Origin: Candidatus Heimdallarchaeota archaeon
GTDB taxonomy: Archaea > Asgardarchaeota > Heimdallarchaeia > Heimdallarchaeales > Heimdallarchaeaceae
Assembly: GCA_030668875.1 (NCBI GenBank)
Contig: DAOVER010000051.1
Span: 1-20,675, forward strand
Direction: 5' to 3'
Length of the DNA stretch: 20,675 bases
The notes below the pieces were generated by a model. The model saw nothing but the letters and a program-made list of their open reading frames with translations. It was not told the origin of the DNA and did not search any database. The position numbers and the translations under genes are program-made. Positions 10,777 through 15,853 of this stretch are shown here, one piece after another. Position 1 is the first letter of the stretch. Each line of letters begins with the position of its first letter.

Positions 10777-12339
10777 TTATTGATGAAATGAAACAGTAGC
10801 TGAGTTTATTTTGGTATATTGCAGATTATTTTGAGAATCTACTAGCACTCTTAAAGCTTTGATGATTTCTTCTTGGTAGTAAGAATCCTTATCTGAATGA
10901 TTGATGTTTTTCAATTTTTTGTGATTGATGAATATTGAAGAATCTCCGTGAGAGAAGTCGATTTGAAAAAGACTGGTTTCCGTTACTTCATTTTCTGTTT
11001 CTTTTGATATCTCTCCTTTGATAACTTCATCTTTTTGTAAATCTAGTACAAGATTTGGAGTTAATGTTATGTATCTCTTCACCTGATGAAGTTTAGTTGG
11101 TTTTTCAGATAATTTGATAGTTTTCAAGACCTTCATATCTGAATCGAGAATGTGAATTGTTGAATTGTCTCCAATGCATATCAATCTATTATCATAGTAG
11201 AAAATGCCTTGAATGGATTTTTCGTACAATTTTTTTACATTTAGTTGTTTAAGATTATTAATATCCAAAATGGTGATTCTACCATCTCTGGAAGCAACCA
11301 CAATATTTCTAGGCATAATACATAGACTAGAAACTGGTACAATATTGTCCTTCTTCTTTACTAAGTTTAGTGACTCATCATAGAGATGTATCTCTCCAGA
11401 TTCTAATCCAGCTAGCACTTTATTAGATGATAATAATTTAAGCGAAAGAGGTCTATGTTCTATCTTGTTCTGTAGAATTAATTGTCTAGTATGAAAATCA
11501 CTTTTCCTTAAATGGGGGCTCATTGAACTTAAATATAAAATATTGTTCTTAATTTCTATACCCGTTATGTTTTTACCATGGGGGAAAAAAACATTTCTGT
11601 TCTTTAGTTTCTGTTTATCCCATATAGAAACCATCCCAGCTACATGACCCAATATGATACTATCCTCTGTAGCCTTGCAGATAGTTACAGGGATACCATT
11701 CAGTCTAGTGAACTGATGCAGAATATACCTAGAGTCTCTTCCTTGAAATTCAGTTATATCTTTTGATGCCTTTTTTATAGCTTTTAGTATTGCTGAAGGA
11801 TTGATCAATAAATATTTTACAAATTCTAAATCCTCTGCACTATATATTGAAACTAATCCATCATGGTGTGCTGTGATTATAATATCATCTTCGATGAAGA
11901 ATCTTTCCAAATCAGGAATTTTAATCCTATCAACCAAGATTAGTTTATTGTTTTCTAGTTTCCACTTTTTGAGAAGCTGATCTCTACTCGCACTTATGAT
12001 ATAATCTCTCCAAGGCTTTGCCCCTATAATTGTTGATGAATGTGCTTTTTTTGATTGTAGTAGTTCTAAAGTTTTAAGAGACCAGACCTTGAGTTCTAGG
12101 CTCTGTGACGTAGTGATGAATAAATCTGTATCAGAAATTCTTTGAATATCAGTAATAGCTGAGTTGTGAGCATAAATACAAGCTATTTCTTTTTCTAACT
12201 CCTCATCCCAAATACAGATTCTCCCCTCTCCACCCCCTGTGAAGATTTTACCATCCATTTCTTGAATTACTGTGACTCCCTTTAGGTGTCCTGGTTGATG
12301 ATAAATAATCTCGGTCGCATTAGAAGTTGTTCTGCTCAC
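10777..12339 (-). CDS. WD40-repeat beta-propeller protein (about 11-12 blades)
   Basis: Repeats such as GH.KGVT...IFTGGGEGRICIWD, AHNSAITDI...FITTSQSLELKVWS, AHSSTI...IISASRDQLLKKWK, HGKNITGI and VVASRDGRITILD. GTG start. Confidence 0.88.
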   Translation of the reverse strand: MSRTTSNATEIIYHQPGHLKGVTVIQEMDGKIFTGGGEGRICIWDEELEKEIACIYAHNSAITDIQRISDTDLFITTSQSLELKVWSLKTLELLQSKKAHSSTIIGAKPWRDYIISASRDQLLKKWKLENNKLILVDRIKIPDLERFFIEDDIIITAHHDGLVSIYSAEDLEFVKYLLINPSAILKAIKKASKDITEFQGRDSRYILHQFTRLNGIPVTICKATEDSIILGHVAGMVSIWDKQKLKNRNVFFPHGKNITGIEIKNNILYLSSMSPHLRKSDFHTRQLILQNKIEHRPLSLKLLSSNKVLAGLESGEIHLYDESLNLVKKKDNIVPVSSLCIMPRNIVVASRDGRITILDINNLKQLNVKKLYEKSIQGIFYYDNRLICIGDNSTIHILDSDMKVLKTIKLSEKPTKLHQVKRYITLTPNLVLDLQKDEVIKGEISKETENEVTETSLFQIDFSHGDSSIFINHKKLKNINHSDKDSYYQEEIIKALRVLVDSQNNLQYTKINSATVSFHQ

Positions 12340-12346
12340 AAATATT

Positions 12347-12375
12347 GTAAATCTTAAATGCTAATTAAGATTTAC
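12347..12375. promoter_or_regulatory. Perfect inverted repeat: 11-bp arms, 7-nt spacer (GTAAATCTTAA-atgctaa-TTAAGATTTAC)
   Basis: Arms at 12347-12357 and 12365-12375 are exact reverse complements. The element sits between the sRNA 3' end and the WD40 start codon. Confidence 0.7.
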
Positions 12376-12392
12376 TTTATCGTAATAATATG

Positions 12393-12452
12393 GTGGCTCA
12401 TTTAGTCGTGAGAACATCATTATTCAGTCTGGGACGGTTAAATCACGGCCAC
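12393..12452 (-). ncRNA. Box C/D 2'-O-methylation guide sRNA (two guides, 23S rRNA PTC targets)
   Basis: Minus strand reads GUGGC C [C: GUGAUUU] AACCGUCCCAGA [D': CUGA] AUA [C': AUGAUGU] UCUCACGACUAA [D: AUGA] GCCAC. It has a 5-bp terminal stem, two 12-nt guides and is 60 nt long. Guides pair with conserved 23S CUGGGGCGGU and GUCGUGAGA (rRNA sequences from general knowledge, not from this window). Confidence 0.88.
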
Positions 12453-12514
12453 AGATATCAATTATCTTGCTTTCTTTTATCTATTCCTCTATGAGAGTTG
12501 GAAAAATAGAAAAA

Positions 12515-15500
12515 TCACATTGGAATGAGTCCAATTGTAACTTTGAAATCATCAAATTCCCATTCTTTAATGTGGCCATCTTTAGGCAAGGATAATTTGA
12601 GTTCTGAACTTAAAGTTTCTTCCTTTATGTATTCTGTAAATCTTTCGAGAGCTTTCGAACCAAATTCGTCAGCTTCTATTGTTAATAATATATGTTGTGT
12701 ATATTCTAAATCCAACTCTTTTCTCATTGTTTGAACTCTTCTTATTATGTCTCTCACATAGCCTTCTTGTTTAAGTTCTTCAGTTATGGTTGAATTGAAA
12801 AGCAACAAATAGCCTTCAGCCTCTTCACCAGCAAAACCTTCCTGTACGTCTATTTTGTATTCTAAGTCTTCGGGGGTGAGTTCAAACTCCTCTTTCTTTA
12901 ATTTAAGAAGAATATTTTCTCCTAAACTGAGTTTCTTTACAAATTCATTTGCTTCTTGTGGTTTAAGGTTTTCTAGTTTCACACGTATCTCATTAACGGC
13001 AGATTTTACTTTAGGAGCTAAAACTTTGAAATTAGGTTTAACAACATAGCTAACCATTTCATCTGAGCTCTCTTGAAGAACTACTTTCTTTACATTGAGT
13101 TCCTCTTTGAATAGATTTTCATACTTCATGATTAGTTCCTCTTTACCAAATGGTGTTATAACTATTAATTCAGAAAGAGGTTGTCTTAACTTTATATTAG
13201 CCGAAGATCTTACACTACGTCCTGTAGTAACTAGCCCTATTATCTTGTTCATTTCTTCTGAAAGCTGTGAATCAACCTGTTTTTTGTCAAATTTTGGAAA
13301 TATGTTCATGTGCACACTTATTGGTGCCTCCTTATCCAGGGATTTGACTAGGTTCTTATACAGTGTCTCTGTTAGGAATGGCATAAATGGTGCTAGTAAT
13401 TTTGTTAAAGTTTCAAGCACTTCATAAGTTGTGATATAAGCTGATTTTTTGTCCTGATCTAGCTCAGTTTTCCAGAACCTTCTTCTTGATTGGCGAAGAT
13501 ACCAATTGCTAAATTTATCTAAAACAAATTTCTCAAATGCTTGTACGGCTTGATGAACTATTAGATCTTCCATATTTTCCTCTACAGTTTTTATTAAATA
13601 ATTCAACTCACTTATCATCCATCGATCGAGCTCTGGTCTTTCCTTTAATGGAACTGAAAGGGTAGCTAAATCAAACTGATCTACGTTTGCATTTGAAACA
13701 AAGAAACTGTAACTATTCCAGAGTGTTAGTATTAGTTTCTTCATAGAATCGCTTATGTGAACTGGTTTTAATCTAACACTTGACCATGTAGGATTTGAAA
13801 ATAGATACCATCTAACTGCGTCAGCTCCAAATTGGTCTATAAGATCTTGAGAAAAGATGACATTACCTTTACTCTTACTCATTTTTCTACCATTACCATC
13901 TAAAGTTAATCCCATGGTAAGACAATTCAAGAAAGCTGGTTTATCAAATAGAACGGTACTTATTGCTAATAATGTATAAAACCATCCTCTAGTTTGGTCT
14001 ATGGCTTCAGTGATAAAGTCAAATGGAAAGTGTTTATCAAATAATTCTTTGTTCTCAAATGGATAGTGATACTGTGCAAAAGGTGCGCACCCGGATTCAT
14101 ACCAACAATCTATTACATATGGAACTCTTCTAGCTATTTCATTGCAGTCTGGACATTTGAAGGTTATTTCATCTACCCATGGACGATGTAAACTGAAGCC
14201 TTCAGGTAACGGTTTCCCAGAGAGATCTTTAAGTTCCTTTAGACTTCCTAGTATTGTATGATGATCATTCGAGCATGTCCATATTGGCAAAGGTGCTCCC
14301 CAGAATCGATTTCTGGATAATGCCCAGTCTCTTGCTTCTTTTATGAAGTTTCCAAATCTGCCTTCTTTTAAATGAGCAGGTTGCCAACGTATTTGTTCGT
14401 TATTTGCAACTAATTTTTCTCTCATTTCAGACATTTTAATGTACCATGTTTCAGTAGAATAATATAGCAATGGTCCATCACAGCGATAACAAAATGGATA
14501 TGTATGTTTGTAAGTTCCTTGCTTAAAGAGCAATCCTCTCTCTTTGAGATTCTTTATGATTTTTGGATCGGCTTTTTTAACGAATAAGCCTGCAAAGTCA
14601 GTTATTTCATTAGAGAAAGTACCGTCCTCTAATACAGGATTCATCAATGGTAGTCCATATTTCTTTCCTATTTCTGCATCATCCTCTCCAAAAGCTGGTG
14701 CAGAATGAACGATGCCGGTACCATCTTCTGTTGTAACATAATTCGCTATTGTTACAAAAAATGCTTCCTCTTCAGGGACAATGAATGGGAATAGCTGTTC
14801 GTATCTTTTTCTTTCTAGGTCTTTTCCTTTAAATTTCTTAAGAACTTTATAGTCCTCGAACAGATTTTCAGCATTTGTTTCAGCAAGTATAAATTTTTCT
14901 CCTTCATGCTCTATTTGAACATAATCTATGTCTGGGTGTACTGTCAAACAAATATTTGATATCAAAGTCCAAGGCGTTGTGGTCCATGCAAGATAATATG
15001 TATCATCGAAGTCTAGTGACTTGAATTTGATGAATATCGAAGGATCTGTTGTTTCTCTCATACCTTGTCCTACTTCGTGGGAAGATAGCGGTGTGCCACA
15101 TCTAGGACAATAAGGAACAACTTTGTAACCAAGATACATCAAACCCTTGTTGTATATCTCCTTTAGTGACCACCAGACGCTCTCTATGTAATTCTCATCC
15201 ATGGTGATATATGGGTTATCTAAATCTAACCAGAAACCTATTCTTCTTGACATATCGTGCCATTCTTTAACATATTTGAAGACAGATTTTCTACATGCTT
15301 CATTGAAGTTTCTCATCCCATACTCTTCAATGTCAGATTTATCTGTAAAACCTAATTCCTTCTCAACTTGTAGTTCGACGGGTAGTCCATGACAATCCCA
15401 ACCTGCAATGTATGGTTGAATATCAAAGTCGTGCATGAGTTTGTATCTCAAAAATACATCTTTTGTTGCTCTTGTAAGTGAATGTCCTGCGTGAGGTAAA

Positions 15501-15673
15501 CCATTTGCAGTTGGTGGGCCTTCTAGCCACTTGTATAACTTTTTACCTTTTTTACTTTCTCTCACTTTGTTGAAAACATCGTTTTTTTCCCAAAACTCAA
15601 GTATTTTCTCTTCCTCTTCAGGAAATGAGGGTATTGGTTTTACGGTTTCGAACACTTGTTTCTTCTTATCCAT
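12515..15673 (-). CDS. ileS: Isoleucine--tRNA ligase (IleRS2 / archaeal-eukaryotic type)
   Basis: EGPPTANGLPHAGH (HIGH), GWDCHGLPVE, WTTTPWTL, GTGIVHSAPAFGEDD, DWALSRNRFWG and KMSKS. The ATG at 15673 has GGAGA upstream; the ORF track uses TTG at 15688. A T-rich tract follows the stop. Confidence 0.97.
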   Translation of the reverse strand: MDKKKQVFETVKPIPSFPEEEEKILEFWEKNDVFNKVRESKKGKKLYKWLEGPPTANGLPHAGHSLTRATKDVFLRYKLMHDFDIQPYIAGWDCHGLPVELQVEKELGFTDKSDIEEYGMRNFNEACRKSVFKYVKEWHDMSRRIGFWLDLDNPYITMDENYIESVWWSLKEIYNKGLMYLGYKVVPYCPRCGTPLSSHEVGQGMRETTDPSIFIKFKSLDFDDTYYLAWTTTPWTLISNICLTVHPDIDYVQIEHEGEKFILAETNAENLFEDYKVLKKFKGKDLERKRYEQLFPFIVPEEEAFFVTIANYVTTEDGTGIVHSAPAFGEDDAEIGKKYGLPLMNPVLEDGTFSNEITDFAGLFVKKADPKIIKNLKERGLLFKQGTYKHTYPFCYRCDGPLLYYSTETWYIKMSEMREKLVANNEQIRWQPAHLKEGRFGNFIKEARDWALSRNRFWGAPLPIWTCSNDHHTILGSLKELKDLSGKPLPEGFSLHRPWVDEITFKCPDCNEIARRVPYVIDCWYESGCAPFAQYHYPFENKELFDKHFPFDFITEAIDQTRGWFYTLLAISTVLFDKPAFLNCLTMGLTLDGNGRKMSKSKGNVIFSQDLIDQFGADAVRWYLFSNPTWSSVRLKPVHISDSMKKLILTLWNSYSFFVSNANVDQFDLATLSVPLKERPELDRWMISELNYLIKTVEENMEDLIVHQAVQAFEKFVLDKFSNWYLRQSRRRFWKTELDQDKKSAYITTYEVLETLTKLLAPFMPFLTETLYKNLVKSLDKEAPISVHMNIFPKFDKKQVDSQLSEEMNKIIGLVTTGRSVRSSANIKLRQPLSELIVITPFGKEELIMKYENLFKEELNVKKVVLQESSDEMVSYVVKPNFKVLAPKVKSAVNEIRVKLENLKPQEANEFVKKLSLGENILLKLKKEEFELTPEDLEYKIDVQEGFAGEEAEGYLLLFNSTITEELKQEGYVRDIIRRVQTMRKELDLEYTQHILLTIEADEFGSKALERFTEYIKEETLSSELKLSLPKDGHIKEWEFDDFKVTIGLIPM

Positions 15674-15853
15674 AGTAATCTTCTCCAAAATGTTTGTTAG
15701 AAACTATATACGGCACGCTACAGAGGTTATTCAAAAAATGTTTTGTTTTAGTGAATTTCGCGATCCATCCTAATTCCTCAGTACCTATATTCTCTCCTCT
15801 ATCGACATTTAAAAAGATTCTGTATTTCGATATTGAGGTGTTCTAACCTTATT

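Follow-up and report, generated by a model that had tools for sequence, protein, structure and literature searches.

A predicted box C/D guide sRNA for G2251 of the 23S rRNA P-loop in a Heimdall-group Asgard archaeon

Asgard archaea are the archaeal group closest to eukaryotes. In the window examined here (i.e., the whole stretch of DNA that was analyzed, 20,675 nt), a short intergenic gap raises the question of whether it encodes a functional box C/D guide sRNA and, if so, which nucleotide that RNA would direct for ribose methylation. An earlier note on this DNA had proposed such an RNA and had treated an Asgard host as a supposition; the host is indeed a Heimdall group archaeon, and the layout and coordinates proposed for the element are exact to the base on the minus strand. 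Read directly from the window sequence, the element comprises 60 bases (minus strand, 12452-12393), situated in a 175-nt gap between two minus-strand ORFs, and has the following parts:

12448-12452, minus strand: 5′ half of the terminal stem, GUGGC, which pairs with 12397-12393
12440-12446, minus strand: C box GUGAUUU (consensus RUGAUGA), with U at positions 6 and 7
12428-12439, minus strand: D′ guide AACCGUCCCAGA, 12 nt, of which positions 2-11 match 23S CUGGGGCGGU; position 5 is C 12432
12424-12427, minus strand: D′ box CUGA (CUGA, CAGA or CGGA in relatives)
12421-12423, minus strand: variable loop AUA between D′ and C′ (2-8 nt in relatives, where its sequence is also unconstrained)
12414-12420, minus strand: C′ box AUGAUGU, as read from the sequence; its pairs were counted in the alignment described below
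12402-12413, minus strand: D guide UCUCACGACUAA, 12 nt, with a predicted target in 23S helix 93 or helix 89
12398-12401, minus strand: D box AUGA (consensus CUGA), whose A1 pairs with U6 of the C box
12393-12397, minus strand: 3′ half of the terminal stem, GCCAC, partner of GUGGC

Both spacers (the D′ guide and the D guide) are exactly 12 nt, a layout kept in orthologues, and K-turn geometry is present (GUGGC / C-G-U bulge / GA ... GA / GCCAC), with the 3-nt bulge made up of C 12447 and the first two C-box bases, G and U. The predicted MFE and centroid folds both contain the terminal stem. The C and D boxes depart from the consensus RUGAUGA / CUGA at three positions. An alternative C-box register, GCGAUGA followed by a 15-nt spacer, was rejected, as the sequence at this place is GUGAUUU, with no GAUGA, in the window and in its three closest relatives, the register leaves no 3-nt K-turn bulge, and alignment with other phyla fixes the 12-nt register. 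In the adopted register, the C and D boxes would form a K-turn composed of the terminal stem, the 3-nt bulge, two sheared G-A pairs and a U-U pair, followed by a U6-A1 pair that replaces G6-C1, and the C′ and D′ boxes would fold as a K-loop; these two predicted motifs would serve as the assembly platform for L7Ae, Nop5 and fibrillarin. All three proteins, which the earlier note had named as the partners to look for, are encoded by the host, with fibrillarin (PF01269, 307 bits) and Nop5 (PF01798, 212 bits) adjacent on contig C36 and L7Ae (PF01248, 94 bits) on contig C58.

A set of motifs this short may also be a chance arrangement, or a decaying functionless relic. Such a reading would fit the overall folding energy of the element, which is unremarkable (z = -1.23), as well as the lack of a significant Rfam match: nothing in the whole window reached a gathering score, and a search of 12300-12560 at E values up to 10 returned weak C/D matches alone, all with E > 2. 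One of these, to sR9 (RF01312), spans 12396-12450 on the minus strand and reflects a shared general C/D layout, but scores 12.6 bits vs. a gathering score of 36 (E = 8), and the element belongs to no curated Rfam family. A scan of the host assembly (3.23 Mb, 99 contigs, 33.8% G+C) argues the other way. The pattern comprised a C box, a 10-14-nt spacer, a D′ box, a loop, a C′ box, a second 10-14-nt spacer and a D box, with pairing of C6-D1 and a terminal stem also demanded, and composition-matched shuffled genomes served as controls; three high-scoring C/D matches were found in the real genome, one of them this element, compared to none in the shuffled genomes.

Two further C/D candidates were noted in the host. 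One (L217:106-172, corresponding to host contig C50:8285-8351, plus strand) has AUGAUUU/AUGA boxes and a 7-bp terminal stem, and its D′ guide AGUUACCCCUGG pairs at 12 of 12 positions with the same-genus 23S sequence CCAGGGGUAACU, beside the A2451 region; orthologues occur in genera g1 (the host's own genus), g9, g10 and g11, some of which mix AUGAUUU with CUGA. The other (L218, corresponding to host contig C36:8467-8514, plus strand) has near-canonical AUGAUGU / CUGA boxes, and its guides match same-genus 16S rRNA near helix 44 and the 3′ end, with 11 contiguous pairs to GUCGUUGCAAC (one of them G-U) and 9 bp to CAAAAGUCG. With just three candidates found in the genome, the lineage is apparently very poor in guide RNAs.

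The element is well conserved within the Heimdallarchaeaceae. Using BLAST and pattern searches, we identified orthologues in 25 of the 29 other family genomes (21 of 23 in the same genus, 2 of 2 in g9 and 2 of 2 in g11); the same searches did not find it in genera g10 or g12. In g1 and g9, the orthologues always lie in the spacer between the IleRS and WD40 genes, and in g11 the WD40 neighbor alone was matched. The orthologous RNAs are 75-97% identical, and they retain this identity where the WD40 neighbor is about 40% identical at the amino-acid level (37-47% in most relatives, 37-91% overall) and where the flanking DNA just outside the terminal stem cannot be aligned, a pattern of conservation that contradicts a relic. 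A RUGAUUU/A C box is present in nearly all family orthologues, and the D-guide core UCACGAC is kept in g1 and g9 and is one base off in g11 (CUACGAC). Given the three matches vs. none in shuffled genomes, together with the retention of the RNA in the same spacer amid diverging flanks, we consider the element to be more than chance.

Covariation in an alignment of 60 members of the sRNA family (alignment A1) bears on the same point. Across the pairs counted (terminal stem, C6-D1, C7-D(-1) and C′/D′), 83% of cells were paired, compared to 36-48% when the partners were slid by 1-3 columns. All five terminal-stem pairs change on both sides among the 60 members, C6-D1 is G-C in 39, U-A in 20 and unpaired in one, and the pair between C′ position 7 and guide position 1 covaries (U-A in 30, A-U in 14), with the pair C′ G6 - D′ C1 invariant (60/60). 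That the terminal stem and C6-D1 covary speaks further against a chance arrangement or a relic, which we judge the least probable of all the readings considered here. The U-A state at C6-D1 was confined to the host's family and a single further contig (L088, discussed below), and therefore reflects one or two events rather than twenty.

The earlier note had held that the C and D boxes deviate together, such that one compensates for the other. The covariation is evident in the counts above; a strict compensation, however, is ruled out by genome G002, in which the C box AUGAUAU occurs with the D box CUGA (A6 facing C1), and by the second sRNA (that of contig C50) in genomes G004 and G015, where AUGAUUU occurs with CUGA (U6 facing C1). 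In the g11 genomes, AUGACUU is found with AUGA. RUGAUUU thus appears to be a lineage habit that is usually but not always matched by A1, and the non-consensus boxes are best read as a lineage-specific K-turn variant with mostly compensated pairing. Other sRNAs with non-canonical K-motifs are known (PMC6009581). We did note that a number of Bathyarchaeia loci (L050, L051, L056, L080 and others) combine a D box CAGA with a C box AUGAUGU, by which the usual U-U pair becomes U-A, representing another lineage-wide K-turn variant. The U6-A1 boxes serve as a warning that scanners built on the consensus will return too few sRNAs from lineages of this kind.

As far as computation shows, layout, conservation and covariation uphold the claim of a complete box C/D sRNA, and the element is, with high probability, an authentic box C/D sRNA that guides ribose methylation at G2251 in a Heimdall-group Asgard archaeon. 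It is previously undescribed; the ten best matches of a literature search included no paper joining 'box sRNA' to Asgard names, and the paper on closed Heimdallarchaeum genomes makes no mention of sRNAs (PMC8813620).

The neighboring genes and the signals around the element are as follows:

12515-15688, minus strand: isoleucyl-tRNA synthetase (IleRS) gene, the upstream neighbor (Pfam tRNA-synt_1, E 7.6e-119; Anticodon_1; DUF5915)
10777-12339, minus strand: WD40-repeat protein gene, the downstream neighbor (Pfam WD40-type propeller families)
12474-12485, minus strand: TATA-like putative promoter element AATAGATAAAAG, with its last base 22 nt upstream of the 5′ stem
12383-12392, minus strand: A/T-rich tail after the stem, a possible terminator, at the place of T5-T6 runs in relatives

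The element lies on the same strand as both neighbors and close to both, and L7Ae is reported on mRNA K-turns in archaea (PMC5539422); both would suit a cis-acting K-turn in the IleRS 3′ UTR or the WD40 5′ UTR, bound by L7Ae for regulation and involving no guide in trans. Such a K-turn would not account for the full C/D′/C′/D layout with its two 12-nt spacers, nor for the element's own conserved TATA-like box. In the same-genus (g1) and g9 orthologues, the motif AATA(A/G)ATAAAA(G/A) occurs at a constant distance (-33 to -22), and the spacer between this motif and the sRNA diverges among them; in the g11 genomes, TTTATATG stands about as far upstream of the stem. A T-rich tract following the IleRS stop codon separates that codon from the TATA-like box, and the same RNA occurs in other genomic contexts in other phyla, and we therefore regard regulation in cis as highly improbable. 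T-runs are seen 3′ of the stem in most relatives and are weak in the window itself. Judging by archaeal TATA spacing, the TATA-like box may act as a promoter, the T-runs of relatives suggest a possible terminator role for the A/T-rich tail, and the archaeal promoter geometry as a whole would make the guide sRNA an independent transcription unit.

Target pairing had to be assessed on rRNAs of the same genus (23S from four genomes and 16S from two), since the host assembly (92% complete, 24 tRNAs) lacks both 23S and 16S rRNA; the 23S genes of relatives are 3.3-4.2 kb long. The stretch itself was mostly covered in four marine sediment metagenome runs, three of which are flagged as possible origins of the DNA. 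All 21 runs listed are environmental DNA metagenomes, with no RNA run among them nor among those listed for a 201-nt stretch. The P-loop segment at E. coli 2248-2257 is CTGGGGCGGT, with the numbering checked on the real rrl gene, and the four same-genus 23S genes read ACUGGGGCGGUA at this site. On all four, positions 2-11 of the D′ guide pair with CUGGGGCGGU (E. coli 2248-2257) over 10 contiguous bp, nine of them Watson-Crick and the tenth a G-U at G2253; position 5 forms a C-G pair on G2251. This agrees with the earlier note, which had predicted a 10-nt pairing with one G-U and the fifth position on G2251. Duplexes of 8-10 bp are described as working best in vitro (Yang et al. 2016, cited in PMC7089733). 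The strict rule of nine continuous Watson-Crick pairs (PMC6009581) finds no such run in this guide, owing to the G-U pair.

Complementarity alone is weak evidence here, as 158 of 3000 shuffled D′ guides (~5%) scored equally well on 16S and 23S rRNA, and it is conservation that carries the argument. The same figure would favor a C/D sRNA whose D′ guide acts on a tRNA, an mRNA or 16S rRNA and matches the P-loop by coincidence, all the more so as the target set is incomplete, with 24 tRNAs and no rRNA in the assembly. Yet neither a host tRNA nor any other site in the same-genus rRNAs (23S from four genomes, 16S from two) reached 8 paired positions with the D′ guide. The guide core moreover recurs in some ten lineages of phylum rank, a spread consistent only with a universally conserved target like the P-loop, and in other Heimdall families this guide occupies the D position of another sRNA. 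A target outside the P-loop is accordingly very unlikely in our estimation.

The changes seen at D′ guide positions 2-11 within the family are C/U exchanges opposite G, with two exceptions, namely an A-to-C change at position 3 in genome G001 and an A-to-G change at position 11 in g9, which still leaves a G-U pair with U2257. In g9, CCGUCCCAG is also replaced by CCGCUCCAG, shifting the wobble to G2252. At guide position 11, an A faces U2257 in the host's family and a G faces C2257 in Bathyarchaeia, with Freyarchaeia as an exception. Position 5 of the D′ guide is Watson-Crick paired in every orthologue. With its positions 2-11 on the 23S P-loop, the D′ guide would place fibrillarin at the ribose of G2251, yielding Gm2251, and guiding this methylation appears to be the most likely function of the sRNA.

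The second guide is less specific. On same-genus 23S rRNA, the D guide forms 9 bp with helix 93 (GUUGUGAGA, E. coli 2592-2600), where position 5 faces U2593 beside a G-U pair, and it also pairs with the 5′ strand of helix 89 (GUCGUGGG, E. coli 2459-2466), where position 5 faces U2460. The duplex energies of the window's D guide, as carried by G002, are nearly the same (-12.9 kcal/mol for helix 93 and -12.7 kcal/mol for helix 89), and 1007 of 3000 shuffled D guides scored as well on 16S and 23S rRNA. Helix 93 as the sole target was rejected, given that helix 89 fits equally in the host genus and much better in g11 (-16.3 vs. -6.0 kcal/mol for helix 93) and in Freyarchaeia, whose guide CCCGUGACAA is perfectly complementary to its own helix 89 GUUGUCACGGG, an instance of guide-target covariation. 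The homologous guide of a Bathyarchaeon fits helix 93 best. The D guide would thus act, over 8-9 bp, on either U2593 (helix 93) or U2460 (helix 89), which fit equally well in the host genus; both sites line the peptidyl-transferase center.

In the 23S genes of the family, GGGGUAAC (about E. coli 2449-2453, in the A2451 region) is directly followed by a 350-425-nt insertion, located as follows:

L002:4046-4393, i.e., about positions 2546-2893 of the G004 23S gene: 23S insertion, also present in L005, L006 and L169

Complementary ends (UGCGC ... GCGCA) flank the insertion, which a Freyarchaeial 23S gene lacks and which probably represents an rRNA intron. A few bases beyond it, the D guide's helix 89 site begins, and the guide of the C50 sRNA ends at the 5′ edge of the insertion.

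As both the D′ and the D guides fall in domain V, the sRNA probably methylates this region and assists its folding. A stronger form of the latter role is that the element is a real C/D sRNP that serves chiefly as an RNA chaperone, joining the P-loop with helix 89 or helix 93 during the folding of domain V, with methylation secondary or absent. The spacing of the two sites (210-340 nt in E. coli numbering) and the position of the insertion, whose end is a few bases short of the helix 89 site, would accord with this, as would published work on bridging dual guides and on conserved guides valued for interaction over methylation (PMC7994747, PMC6009581). The invariable Watson-Crick pairing of D′ position 5, however, is what methylation requires, and both bacteria and eukaryotes conserve Gm2251 (PMC11121408). 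These roles are compatible with one another, and a chiefly chaperoning RNA seems unlikely to us. The architecture, conservation, covariation, same-genus complementarity and protein genes are shown computationally, the transcription of the RNA, its assembly into an RNP and its methylations are inferred, and our preferred reading, in which we have considerable though incomplete confidence, is a ~60-nt independently transcribed archaeal C/D sRNA with a D′ guide for Gm2251 and a D guide for a second site in domain V.

The P-loop guide is not limited to the host's family. When 185,579 species genomes were scanned with a pattern made up of a C box, a 12-nt P-loop guide (RCCGYYCCAGN), a D′ box and a C′ box in one register, at least 119 stretches matched. 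Among the 80 matches listed, 64 are labelled archaeal and show the full C/D′/C′/D layout with lineage-specific terminal stems, and 14 are clearly bacterial and lack a D box and stem, as expected by chance. The archaeal carriers among the matches listed belong to Heimdall-, Frey-, Jord- and Njordarchaeia, Bathyarchaeia, Micr-, Iain- and Altiarchaeota, Thermoprotei and Nitrososphaerota, and most of these lineages have AUGAUGA with CUGA. The invariance of the guide among these matches is partly built in by the search pattern. Nearly all members of alignment A1 read CCGUCCCAG (columns 19-23) rather than the fully complementary CCGCCCCAG, such that conservation of the G-U wobble facing G2253 extends across phyla, and a perfect guide was seen in one Heimdall f7 genome alone.

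Two of the matches carry non-archaeal labels, L088:3935-4001 (minus strand, labelled Sulfurovum sp.) and L119:4257-4319 (plus strand, labelled Candidatus Kaiserbacteria), though both are complete archaeal-type C/D sRNAs with the P-loop guide. L088 has AUGAUUU/AUGA boxes and a GUGGC/GCCAC stem, with ORFs 32-42% identical to those of the host archaeon, and both are probably misbinned archaeal contigs.

In two other families of the host's class, f5 and f7 (L212-L216), the P-loop guide occupies the D position of another sRNA, one whose boxes are canonical and whose first guide differs, an arrangement that represents guide reshuffling between sRNAs. The P-loop guide was not found in class families f2, f3, f4 and f6.

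An archaeal guide for Gm2251 is not in itself new, and its novelty was overrated in the earlier note. The corresponding alignment position (G2520, E. coli G2251) was predicted by Dennis et al. 2015 to be modified in 3 of 7 archaea (PMC4644070), and sR107 of Thermoproteus tenax and sR410 of Ignicoccus hospitalis carry a CCGTCCCAG core (supplement of PMC4644070), sharing with the Heimdall element the guide core CCGUCCCAG, the predicted target and the RNP type. In sR410, the guide is likewise in the D′ position and the boxes are likewise non-consensus, whereas in sR107 the guide is in the D position. The Heimdall element differs from both in coming from a mesophilic, AT-rich Asgard lineage in which C/D sRNAs are very few (three found) and in its RUGAUUU/AUGA boxes, and the likeness to them is known from the guide core.

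The agents of Gm2251 named in the earlier note, RlmB in bacteria (PMC11542601) and snR67 and SNORD31 in eukaryotes (PMC11121408, PMC11550049), were all confirmed. Yeast snR67 (Gm2619) and human SNORD31/U31 (Gm4196) share with the Heimdall element the predicted target nucleotide and the guide mechanism, but are longer, mostly use one guide per target and bind Snu13, Nop56 and Nop58. SNORD31 gave no match in the Rfam scan of 12300-12560 at E values up to 10, though short guide RNAs diverge too fast for this to tell against common descent; homology to snR67/SNORD31 would rest on the guide alone, because the target dictates the guide. RlmB modifies the same nucleotide as a protein-only SpoU-type enzyme with no guide RNA (PMC11542601). 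H. marismortui lacks Gm2251, and its Gm1950 corresponds to E. coli 1909 (PMC2584109); the equation of its Gm1950 with Gm2251 in Table 1 of PMC11542601 is contradicted by this primary source, which records no archaeal Gm2251 there, and was set aside.

Our understanding of how C/D RNPs work is unchanged by the element. Its significance lies in providing a predicted guide RNA, in an Asgard archaeon, for the one P-loop ribose methylation that is protein-made in bacteria and snoRNA-guided in eukaryotes. The module of C box, P-loop guide and D′ box in about ten archaeal lineages, with the G2253 wobble almost always kept, is the broader result and the more interesting by-product, and its breadth qualifies the published view that no guided site is common to archaea and that guides evolve fast (PMC7994747). 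A bolder reading, which we offer as speculative and rather doubtful, is that the RNA represents an ancient double-guide lineage, older than the divergence of the major archaeal phyla and the direct forerunner of snR67/SNORD31, with the fourth pair of the K-turn rewired from G-C to U-A in two sRNA families of the Heimdallarchaeaceae-type family by co-evolution with L7Ae and Nop5. If true, P-loop methylation would be among the very few RNA-guided rRNA modifications passed unbroken from archaea to eukaryotes via the Asgard archaea.
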